Shown piece after piece: positions 7,884 to 64,000 of a DNA stretch of 64,000 bases (within the stretch, counting starts at the first letter, position 1; each line of letters starts with the position of its first letter). A program made the translations under genes and the position numbers. Under the pieces are notes generated by a model that saw nothing but the letters and a program-made list of their open reading frames with translations, was not told the DNA's origin and ran no database searches. This DNA is from a phage, in sequence record OZ556245.1. One strand, given 5' to 3'.

Positions 7884-7902
7884 AAAGGCCCGAAGGCCTT
7901 TT
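7884..7902 (-). terminator. UUCG-tetraloop hairpin
   Basis: AAAGGCCUUCGGGCCUUU. Confidence 0.5.
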
Positions 7903-8170
7903 ATTTAAAACGGATAGTCGAATCCTTGAAGAATAGACCAGAACACACGGTTCCTTCTACTTTCTGCCCAGTAGGTCCAATAGCACGAAATCCAGTATGT
8001 TGAAAATCATTTTCAGAGCAACCGAACCAGTTGTATCCAGTGATTTCAATATTAGTAAAACCACTTGAAGACAAAACTTTGGTTGCATTATCAGCATCAG
8101 TACATCCTGCTAAAGACACTGCTAATACTAATGCTGCGATAGAACGATTAATATATTTCATAGTTTTCAC
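7901..8170 (-). CDS. small lipoprotein (89 aa)
   Basis: signal peptide with lipobox LAGC. Confidence 0.55.
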   Translation of the reverse strand: MKTMKYINRSIAALVLAVSLAGCTDADNATKVLSSSGFTNIEITGYNWFGCSENDFQHTGFRAIGPTGQKVEGTVCSGLFFKDSTIRFK

Positions 8171-21567: not shown

Positions 21568-21861
21568 TTACTCACCTACCACTTCAGCGATGATATTTTT
21601 ATTATTAAAGTTTTTATCGCAATACAGAACATAATTATACTGCATTACACCGCCAGACTTAAGCTGTTTTTGCACTTCAGCTTTCATTTCAGGACGATCA
21701 CGCTCAACGATATTCATAATATCTGCTTCAATTTGAGTTTCAACTTCAGTCTGATCTGCAGTCATAGACCATTCACACAAATCTTTGTCATAACCCGCCA
21801 TAGCAGGCTGAGCAGCGCAAGAAGATAAAGCAAAAATTGTAGCAAAGATAAATTTTTTCAT
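21568..21861 (-). CDS. sp: periplasmic protein Spackle-like (superinfection exclusion)
   Basis: 97 aa with cleavable signal peptide, at T4 sp (61.3) position. Confidence 0.6.
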   Translation of the reverse strand: MKKFIFATIFALSSCAAQPAMAGYDKDLCEWSMTADQTEVETQIEADIMNIVERDRPEMKAEVQKQLKSGGVMQYNYVLYCDKNFNNKNIIAEVVGE

Positions 21862-27444: not shown

Positions 27445-27825
27445 TCACTTAGTCAAATTTTTTACGCATGAATTATAAGAATTCACTACATACTCCATTG
27501 GAGCATTTTTACCAGTACGCCATTGGTAATTATTAGCCCAATTAGCCCAAAGTTCGGCGCAGTAGTTTTCAATTTTTTCTTCGCGTGTAATTACATCCGA
27601 ATTACGATATGCTTGGGCAGATTCATCTGGACGAATAGCTTCATCAAAATTCGCCTGCATTTGTTCTACTGTCTGTTTTGGAGCTTCTTTATAACACTTG
27701 ACGTTAGGATTATAAAATTTGCTTGAACAGTTTACAATTTTTCCTACATCAGACTGATTTACTACCGGTCCTTGAGCTACACAGCCAGTAAGACCTAATG
27801 CAATAACCAAAATAGCAATTTTCAT
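27445..27825 (-). CDS. lipoprotein (126 aa)
   Basis: signal peptide with lipobox LTGC. Confidence 0.55.
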   Translation of the reverse strand: MKIAILVIALGLTGCVAQGPVVNQSDVGKIVNCSSKFYNPNVKCYKEAPKQTVEQMQANFDEAIRPDESAQAYRNSDVITREEKIENYCAELWANWANNYQWRTGKNAPMEYVVNSYNSCVKNLTK

Positions 27826-27835
27826 AATAATTTCC

Positions 27836-28093
27836 TCAAATACAAGTAGTAATTACTCCAGTAGTGCTTACACAGGTATTACCTAATTGAACACCAAGCG
27901 TTCCATTAGTATTCATATGAAGATTATCATCAATTTTTGTTGATACTTTACCATTCATGTGAATAACAGTATTAGATTCAATCACATTCTGAGTGTCATT
28001 TTCAATATCAATAAATGGAACAGCTGCTAATGCAACTAGAACAACTGCTAATGCAACTAAACACGCTGCTAAACAACCATAAACAATTTTCAT
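27836..28093 (-). CDS. small secreted/membrane-anchored protein (85 aa)
   Basis: ORF track 27836..28282 trimmed to ATG after conserved leader; N-terminal hydrophobic segment. Confidence 0.5.
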   Translation of the reverse strand: MKIVYGCLAACLVALAVVLVALAAVPFIDIENDTQNVIESNTVIHMNGKVSTKIDDNLHMNTNGTLGVQLGNTCVSTTGVITTCI

Positions 28094-50944: not shown

Positions 50945-51856
50945 TTAAGATTTAAGTAAATCGACAATTTTAATTAACTTTTCACGCTCAGATTTAGCTT
51001 TACTACTCAGTCCAGATAGTCTGAAAATTTCATCATCATATTGTTGAATAGAAATATTCAGCTCTTCAATTTGCTTATTAAAATAATCAATTTGTTCAGA
51101 ATGTTTTTCGTTACTACGAACTGGTACAGGTTTCGTAGGCAATGTAGTTGAACTGGATTCATCCGGGCGGTAAATTAAAATACAACTTGAACCAATAGGG
51201 CATTTTGCACCAGATGAATATTCTAATGTTCCAGATTCTTTTAAAACTTCAAAAGCTAAACAGAGATGATGCCCCATATTAATATAATCTGTAGAGCGAG
51301 CTCTGATGTAATAATCATCGCCACGAATACTAAATTTAAAGCATTTAAGGTCTTCTGTATTATTGGTCTTAAAAATCATTTGTTTATCTAGACCTTTAGC
51401 TAATCGAGCGCCTAATGCTAATAATCGTCTTTGATTTTCCCACAAATCCGCAATCATTTGATCGAATGATAATTTTGGCATCAGTCGACCATAAAGGTCA
51501 TATCCTTTATTATAATTACGAAGGATTTCATTCGCGTTAATACGAGACAATGCTCCAATTTTATTAAGGGCTTTCATAATGCGATTAGATAAACTCATTC
51601 CAGATCCGTTTGTTCGCTGCAAATGTTTTTCTAATCCAAATCCAATATCAACTTTAAACTTATCTAAAATTTCTGCATGAACATCTCTGTCGATAACATT
51701 CAAATCCAAAGTTGAGTTAAATCTATGAAAAAATTTATCTGGCTCTGCACTGCGAAATACAGTCCATTCATTCATCATTTTTTTATTAACTAAAGATTTA
51801 ATTACTGCATTGACATTATTAATTACTACTGACATATTTTCCTCACTCAATTTCAA
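50945..51856 (-). CDS. hypothetical protein with C-terminal coiled coil (303 aa)
   Basis: ORF track. Confidence 0.55.
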   Translation of the reverse strand: MKLSEENMSVVINNVNAVIKSLVNKKMMNEWTVFRSAEPDKFFHRFNSTLDLNVIDRDVHAEILDKFKVDIGFGLEKHLQRTNGSGMSLSNRIMKALNKIGALSRINANEILRNYNKGYDLYGRLMPKLSFDQMIADLWENQRRLLALGARLAKGLDKQMIFKTNNTEDLKCFKFSIRGDDYYIRARSTDYINMGHHLCLAFEVLKESGTLEYSSGAKCPIGSSCILIYRPDESSSTTLPTKPVPVRSNEKHSEQIDYFNKQIEELNISIQQYDDEIFRLSGLSSKAKSEREKLIKIVDLLKS

Positions 51857-52250
51857 TTTTACTAAATATACAGAATAAGATGGAACAGACTATATAAGCA
51901 CCACACACAGATTGAACTAATACCATTCCAAAGAACCAAACAATATTATCAAACAATGTCTGTTTTACGTCGAAAGGACGTAAACTTACAGTAATATTAT
52001 CACCTTTTTCTATTGAAGAATACATCTCTGGGGAAATATATTCACTAAATCTATAACCGTCTTTTAGTTCATATACGGCAATAAACGATAAACTAGACCC
52101 TTTTCCTTGTGTTCCTGTAATGGTATTAACTACAGTAACATCATAATCTTTATAATGCATATAATCATTAATTGCGTAATAACCATATGCAATTACTACA
52201 CATAAACAACATATCAATAAATTCAATCTTTTAATTATCAACTGTTTCAT
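51843..52250 (-). CDS. membrane protein (135 aa)
   Basis: two predicted transmembrane segments. Confidence 0.5.
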   Translation of the reverse strand: MKQLIIKRLNLLICCLCVVIAYGYYAINDYMHYKDYDVTVVNTITGTQGKGSSLSFIAVYELKDGYRFSEYISPEMYSSIEKGDNITVSLRPFDVKQTLFDNIVWFFGMVLVQSVCGAYIVCSILFCIFSKIEIE

Positions 52251-58888: not shown

Positions 58889-59275
58889 TTATTCGAGGGA
58901 AAGAAGATATTTGCTCTGGTAAAACATCCCAGTAATATCATCTATCGTGCTTTGAATGGCTGGAGGCATTTCTTTATAAATGCTGTTAGATTGGTCTAGT
59001 ATGTGATCAATCATTTTAATTGTATCGGTAGGAAGTTTACTGGCATCTGGAATAGAAGGCGTGTATTTTCTACCAGAATACCCCAAATATTGCTCACCAA
59101 ATTTATCAATCAAATCTGGCAATTCAGAGAAAATAAAATCGTATGCTTTGTGTCTAGCATAACTTTTAGTTTCAAAATGTGCAGAATGAAAATAAGCTTG
59201 TGCAGCCATTAATAAACCTAAGTATTCATCTGCCTTTGAAGGTTTTCCACTTTGTGAAAAGTCGCTGAATTTCAT
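58889..59275 (-). CDS. hypothetical protein (128 aa), rI.-1 position
   Basis: ORF track; synteny. Confidence 0.5.
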
Positions 59276-59565
59276 TCAGTCTCCAATTTAATGTTCATAA
59301 TTCTAGCGTATGATTGTGCCATCTCCGCGCCTCGCTCTATACATTCAAAATCGGAAGAGCACGGGTCATTTTTATAAGTCGTTCGCATAAAACTATAGAA
59401 CTGTTCAGATGATTCTACGCTTTTATTTTCAAAAAGCATATAAACGTGTCTAATACCAGATTCCATAAATTTATCAAAATGAGGATCGACATTCGCTTCA
59501 ATTGGTGGAGATAAAGCAAACGCTAATCCTAGCATGGCAAATAGTGCCGTTGCTTTTAAGGCCAT
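59272..59565 (-). CDS. rI: lysis-inhibition regulator rI (periplasmic antiholin)
   Basis: 97 aa with N-terminal signal/SAR segment, next to tk. Confidence 0.75.
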   Translation of the reverse strand: MALKATALFAMLGLAFALSPPIEANVDPHFDKFMESGIRHVYMLFENKSVESSEQFYSFMRTTYKNDPCSSDFECIERGAEMAQSYARIMNIKLETE

Positions 59566-59577
59566 AAAGGCCTCCTA

Positions 59578-59790
59578 TCATTTTTGTCCTGTATTTACTT
59601 TATGCCGATGCACGGCCTTAACTTTATCAAGGTATTTTTCAAAATTTCGCAATCTAGTATAGTCTGCCGGAGATTGGTTGAGTGATACTTCTCGACGCAA
59701 AGCTGAAATGATATTTCCAACTTCCCTACGAATTTCATCTAATTGAAGAACAGTAAGATTGCGAAGTTGCTTTTCAGTTAATTGTAGCAT
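59578..59790 (-). CDS. hypothetical protein (70 aa)
   Basis: ORF track. Confidence 0.45.
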
Positions 59791-59832
59791 ATATACCCCT
59801 TTAGTTAGATAAACCTATTTATAACTTTTGCA

Positions 59833-60414
59833 CTAACCAAGCTTTTTAGTTAATTCATTCCAATGTTTTCTACACAAAGAAACATAAATTTCATCACCAA
59901 TACAGATTTGATTACCTTCTTTAACTGGCGTTCCATCTTCCATTAATCGAGCTGTCATAATAGCTTTTTTACCACAATGACAAACTGCTTTTAGTTCAAT
60001 AAGTTTATCTGCAATCGCCAAAAGTTCTTTAGAACCTTCAAATAATTTTCCAGCGAAATCAGTCCTTAGTCCATAAGCCATAACAGGAACATTATATGTA
60101 TCAACAATTCGGCTTAATTGATGCACCTGTTCAGTTTTTAAAAACTGGGCTTCATCTACAAATACACAATGAATATCCTTTTGTGCTTCAGCCCATTTAT
60201 AGAACTCAAAAATATCCATATCATCCGTAATAATATTCGCTTCCTGCTTAATTCCAATGCGAGAAACGACTTCACAGACAGAATCACGAGTATCAATAGC
60301 AGGCTTAAGAACTAATACACCCATTCCGCGTTCTTTATAATTATGCGCAGCAGTCAAAAGAGAAGCAGATTTTCCAGCATTCATTGCTGCGTAAGTAAAA
60401 ATTAAACTCGCCAT
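59833..60414 (-). CDS. tk: thymidine kinase
   Basis: 193 aa; P-loop AAMNAGKSASLL; C-terminal Cys cluster. Confidence 0.9.
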   Translation of the reverse strand: MASLIFTYAAMNAGKSASLLTAAHNYKERGMGVLVLKPAIDTRDSVCEVVSRIGIKQEANIITDDMDIFEFYKWAEAQKDIHCVFVDEAQFLKTEQVHQLSRIVDTYNVPVMAYGLRTDFAGKLFEGSKELLAIADKLIELKAVCHCGKKAIMTARLMEDGTPVKEGNQICIGDEIYVSLCRKHWNELTKKLG

Positions 60415-60415
60415 C

Positions 60416-60604
60416 TTAGTCCTTAGTTAAATTTTCTAAATATGTTTCTAAATCATTTTCAGCTTTATCGATAGATTTTACTAATTCGTAATATGTTTCA
60501 GCATCTCCATAATCTGAAGCCGCTTCAAAAGATAAATCTCGTTCTAAACTAACAATTTCGCTGATTAAAAATCGTATTTCATTCTTTTGTTCGCGAGTAA
60601 TCAT
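60416..60604 (-). CDS. small helical protein, S/T-x-EQ family (62 aa)
   Basis: N-terminus MITREQKNEIRFLISEI. Confidence 0.45.
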   Translation of the reverse strand: MITREQKNEIRFLISEIVSLERDLSFEAASDYGDAETYYELVKSIDKAENDLETYLENLTKD

Positions 60605-60786
60605 AAGGAATTTATATAATCAATAAGTTCTTGTTCTTTATCGTCGAAATCTTTACACAGTTCTTCGTATTCATCGGTATTAAAAGGACCGCATTCATCA
60701 CAAACTTTTTCTAATTCATTGTTTTTATCCATAACTTCATGAATAAGAGAAAACAGCCTGTCTTTCTGTTCTTTGCTTAGGCTCAT
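60601..60786 (-). CDS. small helical protein, S/T-x-EQ family (61 aa)
   Basis: N-terminus MSLSKEQKDRLFSLIHEV. Confidence 0.45.
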   Translation of the reverse strand: MSLSKEQKDRLFSLIHEVMDKNNELEKVCDECGPFNTDEYEELCKDFDDKEQELIDYINSL

Positions 60787-60955
60787 AGTATGTCAATCCC
60801 CAAAAGTTTTAAAATGACTCGTTTCTGATTCATAACCGCTACGATTGAATGACCGTTGGGGTCTTTTTGACCTGATCCAATTATAAATCCTTTTTGCGCA
60901 GAAAGTTCAATCAAAACATCAAGTTCACGTAATAATTGATATTTTAAATCATCAT

Positions 60956-61183
60956 TCATTTTGGTTTACCTTCTTTAACGAAATCGGGATAAGGATAAAA
61001 TCCTGAATAAAATCCTTCACCTTTATGATTGATGCATCCTTTATTAGAACAGTAGCACCAATAATCGAAATCACAAGCCATTTCATCATTACATAAAGCA
61101 AAAACAACCGGCCATTCACACTTTTCGCAGTGGGCATTTTTAAGAATACTAGTTTGGCTCATAACCATGTAACCTTTAAGCAA
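60956..61183 (-). CDS. Cys-rich small protein (75 aa)
   Basis: eight Cys in CEKCEW...CNDEMACDFDYWCYCSNKGC. Confidence 0.45.
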   Translation of the reverse strand: MLKGYMVMSQTSILKNAHCEKCEWPVVFALCNDEMACDFDYWCYCSNKGCINHKGEGFYSGFYPYPDFVKEGKPK

Positions 61184-61371
61184 TATTCTTCTACGTGCTG
61201 TTTACGACCTTTCTTATCAATAAAGGTATATTCAACGAATGTTCCAACATAGTCTTTATTTACATCATGTGGACTATTAATTGGGCATTTAGTACGGCAA
61301 ATGCGTTCCCATTGACGAATAATTTCCACTTTGTTTTTAGGATCAAATGGATGCGGGTAATGTACTTTCAT
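61159..61371 (-). CDS. hypothetical protein (70 aa)
   Basis: ORF track. Confidence 0.45.
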   Translation of the reverse strand: MKVHYPHPFDPKNKVEIIRQWERICRTKCPINSPHDVNKDYVGTFVEYTFIDKKGRKQHVEEYCLKVTWL

Positions 61372-61822
61372 AATCCACCACTATTAAATCAATATCAGGA
61401 GTAAACATGTCGATTAATTTAGAAACCTTATCCCAATCGCCGCCAGCAATACCGCAACCGATGCGTGGAATGTAAATTACTGGTTTAAACAAAAGGGTTT
61501 CTGCCTGTAGATTTAATTCTATCATGCAGTTTACTAAAGCACCATAATCAAGATTAGGACCCGGTTCGTATTGCGTATACAAATTATAGCACATACTAAA
61601 TCCTGTAGGATTATGTTTAAAAACAATAGACATATCGCCTAATTTATCACGAGAACCGTACTCGGTAGTGGTTTTATCTATTTCTAAAATTTTGGGATAG
61701 GCTCTTGCTAATTGACCTGCTACGCCAGAGCCCATTGTGTGGAAGCAATTACACCCGTGCGCAATAATATTACCTTGAAGAAATAGGGCGACAATATCGC
61801 CCTTGATATATTTTACAATCAT
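61343..61822 (-). CDS. macro-domain protein (ADP-ribose binding/processing fold)
   Basis: KGDIVAL...HGCNCFHTMGSGVAGQL...IPRIGCGIAGGDW matches macro-domain GDI, Gly-rich loop and second Gly loop. Confidence 0.6.
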   Translation of the reverse strand: MIVKYIKGDIVALFLQGNIIAHGCNCFHTMGSGVAGQLARAYPKILEIDKTTTEYGSRDKLGDMSIVFKHNPTGFSMCYNLYTQYEPGPNLDYGALVNCMIELNLQAETLLFKPVIYIPRIGCGIAGGDWDKVSKLIDMFTPDIDLIVVDYESTLPASI

Positions 61823-62166
61823 CTAGTACTCAATCCTCGATTATAAGAATCTACTAAACGGTCAACCATTGAATGACAAGCGGCTTTATCTTTCTCCTCC
61901 GCAACTGAACATTCTAAGGTATTCCACTTTTTAGCATATCGTTTTAACAATGTATCATTTTTGTATCTGCTTGATTTATCTCTTTCTCCGCCTTTATATG
62001 CATATATTAATTTCTGCGCAAATTCAGCTTGGCATGCTTTATTTTTCCCACAATAATCCGCGGCAGTACGGTTTACATACTCTCTAATTTCAGTATATGA
62101 TGTATCTGCTAACGCAGAAGCAGAAAATGAAATTAATCCTATACATAAAACCAAAATTTTAGTCAT
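61819..62166 (-). CDS. secreted small protein (115 aa)
   Basis: N-terminal signal peptide MTKILVLCIGLISFSASALA. Confidence 0.5.
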   Translation of the reverse strand: MTKILVLCIGLISFSASALADTSYTEIREYVNRTAADYCGKNKACQAEFAQKLIYAYKGGERDKSSRYKNDTLLKRYAKKWNTLECSVAEEKDKAACHSMVDRLVDSYNRGLSTR

Positions 62167-62704
62167 TTACTATTTCCAAAAGTTTATTATTTTTAAGGTA
62201 ATTAGCCTTTTCTAGGACTTCAGAAGCATATTTAGAACCTGCTTTAACATTCCATCCCGAATTATAAGAGGATATCGCCTTTCTTATATCGCCCTTATGT
62301 ATATTTAACCAATAAGAAAGTTCAATGTACGCCCAGGAAGCTGAATTGGACCGTTTATTCAACATTCTTTTTATTTCAGCATCGGTCATATTATAACCAA
62401 GTTCCTTAACTCTTGCTCGCATAGTAGGCAAATAATTTTGGAACATTCCATAGGCATGATGCTTTGGTTTAGATTTTAAATTAACTCCGCCAGAGCTTTC
62501 TTGCCATAAAATGGCTGCCATTATATGACCTAATCCACTCTTGTGGATATTTTTGTGCGTTTTATATTTTCCATCCTTAGAAAACTGTTCCCCGAATTGA
62601 TACGCGTAACGCATGTTATCGAGTTGGACATTACTGAAAGTATGCTCGGAGCTATGTGCCATCATTGAAATGGCCAATAGACCAGCGAGTAGTGCTTTTC
62701 TCAT
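62159..62704 (-). CDS. periplasmic lytic transglycosylase-like protein (SLT domain)
   Basis: signal peptide; catalytic-type motif ILWQESSGG and AYGMFQ. Confidence 0.6.
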   Translation of the reverse strand: MRKALLAGLLAISMMAHSSEHTFSNVQLDNMRYAYQFGEQFSKDGKYKTHKNIHKSGLGHIMAAILWQESSGGVNLKSKPKHHAYGMFQNYLPTMRARVKELGYNMTDAEIKRMLNKRSNSASWAYIELSYWLNIHKGDIRKAISSYNSGWNVKAGSKYASEVLEKANYLKNNKLLEIVND

Positions 62705-62711
62705 GCTTACC

Positions 62712-63173
62712 TCATTGAGTTTTAATTACTGCTTTAGAAGCCTTTCCTGGTAAACGACGACTGTTAATAATTGCCATCCTGCATTGAAGCGACGGGTCTT
62801 TGAACTTCGCATTAGGTTTACAAACTGTAAATCCAAGCCAAAGATTTCCATCTGTAATTTCTAAACGTCCAGGACGGTATTCAACCCCATCAATAAAATC
62901 CTCATCAATGTCAGGACGCGGAGGCATACTCAGGAATTCATTAACTTCTAAAACATGGTCTTTTATTTTGTGGAATAATTCAAAAACATATGTCTCATCA
63001 ATCTCCCGTTGAATTGCACGATCAAGAAGATGCTGAGAATATTTTAGATGAAACGATGAGACCCCTGCTGCTTTTGATGCCTCACGAATCTCATTGTTAA
63101 TTTGACGAAACTCCGACTCAAAGTGACGACGAAGCTTATTTCGACGGATAAAAACTTCTGTGTTGATAGTCAT
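62712..63173 (-). CDS. regB: RegB endoribonuclease
   Basis: 153 aa as T4 RegB; own early promoter immediately upstream. Confidence 0.75.
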   Translation of the reverse strand: MTINTEVFIRRNKLRRHFESEFRQINNEIREASKAAGVSSFHLKYSQHLLDRAIQREIDETYVFELFHKIKDHVLEVNEFLSMPPRPDIDEDFIDGVEYRPGRLEITDGNLWLGFTVCKPNAKFKDPSLQCRMAIINSRRLPGKASKAVIKTQ

Positions 63174-63201
63174 GTTATTCTCCTCTTAACTGATAGAAAA
63201 A

Positions 63202-63231
63202 TTATACCACAGTCAAGAGGAAAAGTAAACA
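63202..63231 (-). promoter_or_regulatory. early promoter upstream of regB
   Basis: GTTTAC - 17 nt - TGGTATAAT. Confidence 0.55.
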
Positions 63232-63232
63232 G

Positions 63233-63553
63233 TTATTCTTTAAATTTAATCAATTTATTCATAGACTTTGAAACTTCTGCACGGACCTCATGTAGGTTTT
63301 TAAGCTGTTCAAGACGTTGCTCATAGTAAGCAATTTCATCTTCTTCAAGACAGTCCTGTGAATCTTCTTTAAGATAACGTGCATAGTCCTGGAAAGCTTT
63401 ACGGACTACTTCTTGGAAGTCATCAAGACTTTGAATTTTCTTAGGAGCAACAGATACACGACGAGGGGCAGTATAATACTCATAACCAAACCCTGCGCTT
63501 AATTGAGCCATTAATATTTTTCCTCTGGTTGGAATACCGCGCGACAAGCCCAC
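63233..63553 (-). CDS. hypothetical protein (106 aa)
   Basis: ORF track. Confidence 0.45.
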
Positions 63554-63813
63554 ATACTAGCTTCTTTGAGTTTCGTTTTAGCAATAGTTAGCTGATCAAG
63601 GCTTTCAGCATAATTCTTTGCGAATTCGTAGTCTTCGCAATTATCTAGTGCTTCCCAGAATTCATCGTATAAAGCGTCAAAGATAAGTCCTAAACGAACT
63701 TCAGCGTCTTTAATAGCATTCACTTTATCGATTTTCTCTTCAGTGTGCGGCTTATAACCTTTAATATCTTCAATCATATTTGACTTCCTCACCCGTTCCC
63801 AAATCATATTCAA
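63511..63813 (-). CDS. hypothetical helical protein (about 100 aa)
   Basis: ORF track; start may be internal. Confidence 0.45.
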
Positions 63814-63991
63814 CTAAACGAATAGGTTCATGAATGCCATATCCTTGAACAGAAATTTCTGTCGTAGGATAAATTCCATTAATATCACCCATGTTCCACG
63901 CTTCATTAAATTGCTGTTCGCCTGAATTACTAAACCATTCGGCAAAAGCATTTAACACATCTTCAGAACCTTCAATAATCATCTTTGCCAT
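63770..63991 (-). CDS. hypothetical acidic protein (73 aa)
   Basis: ORF track. Confidence 0.45.
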   Translation of the reverse strand: MAKMIIEGSEDVLNAFAEWFSNSGEQQFNEAWNMGDINGIYPTTEISVQGYGIHEPIRLVEYDLGTGEEVKYD

Positions 63992-64000
63992 TACAAGCTC

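Follow-up and report, generated by a model that had tools for sequence, protein, structure and literature searches.

The vs.1-vs gene pair of a T4-type phage: a predicted exported lytic transglycosylase and a partner with exported-protein features

The vs.1 and vs genes and their predicted transcript

The DNA analysed here (the window) is a stretch of 64,000 nucleotides of phage sequence from record OZ556245.1, and this work deals with its segment 61819-62704. The phage is of the T4 type (Tequatrovirus), and the segment corresponds to vs.1 and vs, two genes long known from T4. The minus strand of this segment contains exactly two open reading frames (ORFs) (Table 1), and the plus-strand ORFs of 31-46 aa that it holds lie wholly within these two well-supported minus-strand genes. 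The DNA identity to Tequatrovirus genomes is 98.6%, and the gene order tk, tk.1 to tk.4, vs, vs.1, regB, vs.3 is that of T4, so that the pair is flanked by tk.4 and regB, which encode a macro-domain protein and an endoribonuclease, respectively. The Vs.1 protein is 100% identical to T4 Vs.1, and Vs, encoded at the same genomic position as T4 Vs, is identical to it in 113 of its 115 residues (the differences being S19L and D59G) and matches phrog_1256 at E=1.1e-38. The initial annotation of this DNA, made from the sequence alone, spotted the gene pair but missed the T4 names, the published SLT similarity of Vs.1 and the annotation of Vs as a valyl-tRNA synthetase modifier. In fact, Nolan et al. 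2006 (PMC1524935) had described this similarity, for which they cite the 2003 T4 genome review, and it is present in many GenBank annotations. This finding is correct, but it was already known.

The 8-nt overlap between the two genes, which was read directly from the sequence, suggests the translational coupling of vs.1 and vs; the Shine-Dalgarno of the latter is weak (GGAAA), and its stop codon in turn shares an ATGA with the start codon of the following gene. The strong early-type promoter located upstream of regB is likely, from its sequence, the start of a regB-vs.1-vs transcript. A MotA-box search from regB to tk.4 detected no middle promoter ahead of vs and gave a single relaxed match, which maps inside tk.4 at 61541. 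In T4, vs and vs.1 belong to the class of 'early RNA, middle protein' and both proteins have been detected (PMC9697503 supplement), which together with the promoter agrees with the early expression proposed in the initial annotation.

Table 1. Positions in the window of the features of the vs.1-vs locus
Feature	Position	Strand	Description
Early-type sigma-70 promoter	63201..63229	minus	upstream of regB; TTTACT-17-TATAAT plus upstream TG, 10/12 matches
vs.1 coding sequence	62159..62704	minus	181-aa precursor, predicted periplasmic GH23/SLT-type lytic transglycosylase; mature ~163 aa, 18.8 kDa
Vs.1 signal peptide	62651..62704	minus	residues 1-18, predicted cleavage between AHS and SE
Glu69 codon (GAA)	62498..62500	minus	predicted catalytic acid, WQESSGG motif; invariant in three alignments
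vs.1/vs overlap	62159..62166	minus	8 nt, vs.1 stop codon and vs start codon (AAATGACTAA)
vs coding sequence	61819..62166	minus	115-aa precursor; mature ~95 aa, 11.0 kDa; annotated valyl-tRNA synthetase modifier
Vs signal peptide	62107..62166	minus	residues 1-20, predicted cleavage between ALA and DT

Some other features of this region deserve mention. A GC-rich hairpin with a perfect 8-bp stem (GGGCGAUAUUGUCGCCC) maps at 61785-61803 (both strands), inside the 5′ end of tk.4 and 16 nt past the vs stop codon, and a U-rich stretch comes after it. As a 56-nt RNA it folds at -14.3 kcal/mol (z=-2.95 versus shuffled sequences), and it is kept in T4, Sf21 and JS98, whereas a Kanagawavirus lacks it. 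This motif could be either a partial terminator or an RNA-stabilising element ending a regB-vs.1-vs unit. An Rfam scan of 59000-64000 detected no structured RNAs. The Shine-Dalgarno region of regB (63174-63203, minus strand), GAGGAG, contains GGAG, the RegB cleavage motif, and the ribosome-binding site of vs.1 is GAGG, without GGAG. Directly downstream of vs, tk.4 (61343-61822, minus strand) encodes a protein with a macro domain (Pfam Macro, E=3.7e-8); in T4, this gene confers protection from the DarTG2 defence system and has been renamed adfM (2025 preprint 10.1101/2025.11.20.689424).

Predicted export and fold of Vs.1

The two proteins start with a three-part N-terminus, in which a positively charged start and a hydrophobic core free of charged residues precede a small-x-small cleavage site, as claimed for two adjacent signal-peptide genes in the initial annotation. 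In Vs.1, this segment reads MRK, ALLAGLLAISMMA and AHS, followed by SE, whereas in Vs it reads MTK and ILVLCIGLISFSASALA, followed by DT, which would result in mature proteins starting with SEHTFSNVQLDNMR (Vs.1) and DTSYTEIR (Vs). The signal peptides were called through a rule-based analysis of the sequence, and the same architecture was found in 75 of the 77 Vs.1 homologues, the two exceptions resembling truncated gene calls, as well as in 8/8 Vs homologues. Distant Vs.1 homologues from Aeromonas, Felixounavirus and Kuttervirus phages also carry it. In the case of Vs, all full-length homologues keep a segment of this type although its residues vary. An architecture that is kept while the residues change is a pattern typical of signal peptides, and the export of both Vs.1 and Vs through the Sec pathway is a strong prediction. 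As a context for the two proteins, a crude rule-based scan of the window flagged 12 of its 182 ATG ORFs (at least 50 aa), including the exported Spackle (21568-21861, minus strand; Pfam T4_Spackle) and an ORF at the rI position (59272-59565, minus strand), which was placed by comparison with the T4 record. Elsewhere in the window, lipobox-like N-termini (LAGC or LTGC) occur in the minus-strand ORFs 7901-8161 and 27445-27825, the second of which matches DUF5481, and two small minus-strand ORFs (27836-28093 and 51843-52250) are strongly hydrophobic.

The SLT catalytic-type motifs noticed in the initial annotation, ESSGG (residues 69-73) and AYGMFQ (residues 84-89), are accompanied in Vs.1 by a third one, SYNSGW (residues 146-151). 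The protein scores 25.1 bits (E=1.4e-5) with the Pfam SLT profile (PF01464), whose gathering score is 21.3, and 56 of the 64 homologues scanned match the same profile at E<=0.01. The putative catalytic Glu69 is kept in all the alignments, including ~30% identical homologues of Aeromonas, Felixounavirus and Kuttervirus phages, and residues E69-S70 are invariant or nearly so across 64 sequences of the family and in these distant homologues. Hence, neither of the two outcomes that would have refuted the initial annotation, an absent SLT profile match or a non-conserved catalytic Glu, was observed. Residues G86, Q89, N90, Y147, N148, G150 and Y159 are invariant as well, and the motifs G86-M-F88-Q89 and S146-Y147-N148-x-G150, together with the downstream Y159, are invariant or nearly so in the Vs.1 family. 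An AF2 model obtained from the 64-sequence alignment (pLDDT 88.8, pTM 0.82) adopts a lysozyme-like alpha-helical fold, which superposes on solved lytic transglycosylases with structural scores of 12.2 for MltF, 11.8 for Slt (P. aeruginosa), 11.0 for MltC, 10.7 for Slt70, 10.4 for EtgA and 9.9 for MltE, and a Foldseek search of the model agrees with these scores.

Regarding the chemistry of the predicted enzyme, the 64-sequence profile of Vs.1 matches only goose-type lysozymes in the PDB, and weakly. In the corresponding weak alignment (E=1.7), Glu69 lies opposite the catalytic Glu of the RES motif, whereas residues Asp86 and Asp97 of the goose-type lysozyme (GD...MQVD), the two Asp positions of the hydrolase, lie opposite Lys/Pro and an invariant Tyr of Vs.1. 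As these positions are non-acidic, the water-activating base appears to be missing, and because a single-acid active site is a hallmark of lytic transglycosylases, Vs.1 is read as one of them. The term 'muramidase' used in the initial annotation is imprecise for a protein that, according to that weak alignment, would have a single conserved acid as lytic transglycosylases do. Vs.1 also has in common with goose-type lysozymes a C-terminal Y-x-x-x-V-x-x-A-x-Y-x-K motif.

Family 1 lytic transglycosylases (Slt70, MltC and MltE of E. coli, MltF, Slt and MltD of P. aeruginosa, and EtgA) share with Vs.1 the motifs ES, G-[LM]-[MF]-Q and [AS]-Y-N-x-G, and their single conserved acid and Sec export to the periplasm are likewise predicted for the phage protein, which is similar to MltE and EtgA in its small single-domain size and would act as these periplasmic enzymes do. 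However, Vs.1 is very divergent from these enzymes (13-21% identity in structural alignments), its residues 25-58 form an additional helix and loop at the N-terminus that are kept within the phage family only and, unlike them, it is encoded by a virulent phage and would be made early in infection. In any case, sequence, motifs and modelled fold indicate that Vs.1 is a very divergent, phage-specific member of the SLT/GH23 family. NCBIfam contains no model for either Vs.1 or Vs.

Conservation and dispensability of the pair

More than 2,000 phage genome records, spread over Straboviridae, Ackermannviridae and Felixounavirus, contain homologues of Vs.1. The distribution of Vs seemed narrow at first: a word-index search detected 6 relatives, and an exhaustive profile search of 1.84 billion representatives detected only 8, which resemble the same small phage-type proteins (45-119 aa); Vs matches occur in 796 phage records. 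A wider distribution was found once the ORFs directly downstream of vs.1 were inspected, as this ORF encodes a divergent Vs in Dhakavirus, Kanagawavirus, Krischvirus, Jiaodavirus and an Acinetobacter T4-like phage. These divergent copies, with identities down to ~29%, keep the signal peptide, the four invariant cysteines (C-x5-C ... C-x8-10-C) and a C-terminal GL end (GLSS[KR] in most of them, GLLDR in the Acinetobacter phage), and a tblastn search with the Jiaodavirus form retrieved 411 more records. The vs.1-vs pair is conserved in the several T4-like genera inspected (Tevenvirinae, Krischvirus and the Acinetobacter phage), with hosts ranging from Escherichia to Acinetobacter, and the Vs family appears to be confined to T4-like phages. 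Vs.1-like genes without a Vs neighbour are found in Aeromonas phage phiAS4, Felixounavirus HY02 and Kuttervirus SJ3. In Escherichia phage HY02, this gene (L003:2501-3049) maps directly downstream of rIIA-rIIB, and its protein retains the signal peptide and the catalytic Glu. In a Klebsiella Jiaodavirus (L009:2363-2755) and the Acinetobacter T4-like phage (L010:2288-2713), vs.1 and vs are followed by a third ORF of 130-141 aa with a signal peptide (…NAWE / …AAAWEQ), two conserved cysteines and no Pfam match, which makes a three-gene cluster of exported-type proteins; this third ORF is absent from the window.

Published transposon data for T4 (HIDEN-SEQ preprint 10.1101/2025.11.20.689424) classify both genes as 'non-essential', with insertions in 46/52 TA sites of vs.1 and 30/32 TA sites of vs. 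Despite this class, the mean reads in the LB competition control of its supplement are 22.6 for vs.1 and 26.6 for vs, about tenfold below every flanking gene (178.6 for regB, 289.6 for tk.4 and 652 for vs.3). In M9Glc minimal medium, vs is the most depleted gene (log2 fold change, log2FC, -2.19; adjusted p 0), and a clean T4 vs deletion results in plaques impaired specifically in minimal medium (10.1101/2025.11.20.689424). According to the same preprint, the log2FC of vs.1 in minimal medium is -0.87, not significant after correction, and its depletion on a clinical E. coli strain does reach significance (log2FC -1.20, adjusted p 0.015). These data suggest that vs.1 may have some fitness value, either of its own or through a polar effect on the translationally coupled vs. 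The main text of the preprint treats vs alone of the two genes, 'vs.1' being absent from text searches.

The endolysin gene e of T4, in contrast, barely tolerates insertions in the same preprint (mean of 2.5 reads), and since vs.1 is non-essential, Vs.1 is probably not the lysis enzyme, as the initial annotation had anticipated in proposing a role other than lysis. A related possibility is that Vs.1 acts as an accessory or back-up lysis enzyme of the signal-arrest-release (SAR) type, which would be exported early, held inactive and contribute to the final lysis. Its Sec-dependent export would be similar to that of SAR endolysins, and the SLT-fold phage lysins phiKZ gp144 and phi6 P5 are among the structural matches of the model. 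However, vs.1 RNA is early, a hydrophobic core of ~13 residues followed by a good cleavage site (AHS followed by S) does not resemble the uncleaved and weakly hydrophobic SAR anchor of ~20 residues, no holin gene neighbours vs.1, and T4 e is nearly indispensable even with the non-essential vs.1 present, all of which make such a role quite improbable. More generally, T7 gp16, phiKZ gp144 and phi6 P5 have a GH23-like fold as Vs.1 does, and the lysozyme-fold enzymes of phage entry and lysis (these three, together with T4 gp5 and e) cleave peptidoglycan, as predicted for Vs.1. These enzymes, however, are either virion parts or late holin-released endolysins, whereas Vs.1 has its own signal peptide, is early and is non-essential. 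Vs.1 is not known to be a structural protein of the T4 virion, and the e and gp5 lysozymes of T4 belong to GH24, another lysozyme family.

The initial annotation also considered a part in exclusion. Under such a reading, Vs.1, with or without Vs, would act in superinfection exclusion or in the resistance to lysis from without through an altered peptidoglycan met by the incoming tails. The time and place of Vs.1, early and periplasmic, would be those of the exclusion protein Spackle, and large virulent myoviruses that infect Gram-negative bacteria conserve Vs.1, with the Felixounavirus gene directly downstream of rIIA-rIIB. On the other hand, the cutting of glycan strands would, if anything, ease penetration, and T4 exclusion is accounted for by imm and sp. 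Moreover, the competition assays that show the depletion of vs.1 insertions find those in sp and imm to be neutral (10.1101/2025.11.20.689424), so that the cost of losing vs.1 arises without an exclusion phenotype. A function of Vs.1 in exclusion is very improbable.

The compartment of Vs and the role of the pair

The label of Vs as a valyl-tRNA synthetase modifier goes back to work of the 1970s by Muller and Marchin (1975/1977, as cited in PMC8076793). The 115-aa ORF is the same gene product as the T4 Vs 'tau' factor, but its export-type features do not fit the cytoplasmic activity behind the name. Those papers reportedly described in-vivo effects on valS-ts hosts, and the purified modifying factor is said to have had a size of ~10 kDa, the computed mass of mature Vs being 11.0 kDa. 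Public records frequently call Vs 'valyl-tRNA synthetase', as though it were the enzyme itself, and several of them label Vs.1 as 'endoribonuclease' or 'RegB' (e.g. KP869104, OX001802 and CAKLQD020000001), annotation errors being widespread.

Residues Cys39, Cys45, Cys86 and Cys97 of Vs are invariant, and its AF2 model, which is of low confidence (pLDDT 59), shows four helices with the cysteines at two helix-turn-helix loops. Vs has no match in the Pfam copy searched, a PDB sequence search retrieved no match at E<=10, and Foldseek gave no meaningful match to the model (best E=0.9, probability <=0.25). Signal peptide, invariant cysteines and linkage to vs.1 agree poorly with a cytoplasmic target. 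Tentatively, Vs may be an exported, disulfide-stapled periplasmic protein acting in the envelope together with Vs.1, as part of a conserved two-gene module of T4-like phages, which as a complete proposal is rather unlikely. A literature search found no paper on the conflict between the annotation of Vs and its export features.

A classical alternative keeps Vs in the cytoplasm as a 10-kDa factor that binds valyl-tRNA synthetase, its adjacency to vs.1 being incidental and its hydrophobic N-terminus either unused or partly used for export. This explanation, possible although somewhat unlikely, has in its favour the T4 biochemistry and genetics of Muller and Marchin (1975/1977, as cited in PMC8076793), and the defects of vs deletion or depletion in minimal medium (log2FC -2.19) would fit a role in amino-acid metabolism or tRNA charging. 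Moreover, the broad synteny of T4-like genomes makes the adjacency of vs and vs.1 weak evidence by itself. However, a cytoplasmic Vs would hardly account for the canonical cleavable signal peptide of every full-length homologue despite sequence drift, nor for four invariant cysteines at the flanks of the two predicted helix-turn-helix loops, an arrangement of exported proteins stapled by disulfides. In addition, Acinetobacter phages keep vs directly downstream of vs.1 although the remaining neighbours differ, and full-length His-tagged Vs was insoluble in the E. coli cytoplasm. The agreement between the 11.0 kDa of mature Vs and the ~10 kDa of the factor also suggests that the purified protein was already processed.

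If exported, Vs could also be a periplasmic antidote or inhibitor of Vs.1, in the manner of Spackle on the gp5 lysozyme or of Ivy and PliG on lysozyme-like enzymes. Spackle (sp) is, like Vs, a small and early protein with a signal peptide, predicted helices and cysteines; in the case of Vs, this small, helical, cysteine-paired and exported-type protein is encoded by a gene that overlaps that of an exported lysozyme-fold enzyme, and the pair is conserved in Tevenvirinae, Krischvirus and an Acinetobacter phage. However, Vs shows no sequence similarity to Spackle and lacks any meaningful fold match, and sp insertions are neutral whereas vs insertions are costly. Vs was considered as a Spackle homologue and rejected, a BLASTP comparison with the Spackle of the window giving E=4.3, that is, no similarity. 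With an antidote, the loss of vs.1 should be free, yet its insertions are depleted like those of vs (22.6 and 26.6 versus 180-650 in the neighbours), and Vs.1-like enzymes do without a Vs neighbour in Aeromonas, Felixounavirus and Kuttervirus phages. The antidote model is disfavoured by this similar cost of vs.1 and vs insertions, and we regard it as improbable.

The explanation that we prefer, and consider quite likely, is that vs.1 and vs form an early co-transcribed pair, in which Vs.1 would be an exported lytic transglycosylase that remodels the sacculus, with Vs exported too. The process would start with the transcription of regB, vs.1 and vs together from the early host-type promoter. 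The 181-aa precursor of Vs.1 would then be exported via Sec, and signal peptidase I would remove its first 18 residues, producing a soluble periplasmic enzyme of ~18.8 kDa with a lysozyme-like GH23/SLT fold, which would appear from early to mid infection. By analogy with family 1 lytic transglycosylases, Glu69, as the only conserved active-site acid, would protonate the β-1,4 bond between N-acetylmuramic acid (MurNAc) and N-acetylglucosamine (GlcNAc), and would then aid the attack of the MurNAc C6 hydroxyl on C1, leaving 1,6-anhydro-MurNAc ends without the participation of water. Vs would be exported and cleaved as well, resulting in a helical protein of ~11 kDa probably stapled by two disulfides. 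As Vs.1 is early to mid, dispensable in the laboratory and distinct from e and gp5, its role would most likely be the remodelling of the sacculus rather than lysis.

Several observations weigh against this explanation. The PF01464 score of Vs.1 exceeds the threshold just modestly, and a PDB sequence search with Vs.1 retrieved no match at E<=1, with no PDB protein matched by either the Vs.1 sequence or the 64-sequence profile at E<0.6. GH23 hydrolases score like the transglycosylases against the Vs.1 model (11.6 for a Ralstonia GH23 chitinase and 11.0 for goose-type lysozyme), the 64-sequence alignment shows a second invariant acid in the family, Glu128, and it is motif reasoning that favours transglycosylase over hydrolase chemistry. 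The lowered transposon reads of vs.1 could be a polar effect on vs, and the export of Vs conflicts with its classical cytoplasmic partner. Searches of the available literature found no enzyme assay of Vs.1, no localisation experiment, no phenotype of a non-polar vs.1 mutant and no paper on the function of Vs.1.

A last question to consider is what an exported pair would mean for T4-like phages. The presence of Vs.1 in more than 2,000 phage records raises the puzzle of why large virulent phages would export, early in infection, an enzyme predicted to cut glycan strands. On the other hand, the long-standing functional label of Vs implies a compartment at odds with its sequence, and this mismatch between the name and the exported-protein features is the point worth following. 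As vs is, according to a recent screen, the most important T4 gene in minimal medium, the site of action of Vs is needed to interpret that phenotype. If Vs does act in the envelope together with Vs.1, the fitness defect of vs in minimal medium would be an envelope phenotype, and the link to valyl-tRNA synthetase would be secondary, either arising only after cell disruption or resulting from a genetic locus mis-assigned to the vs ORF.

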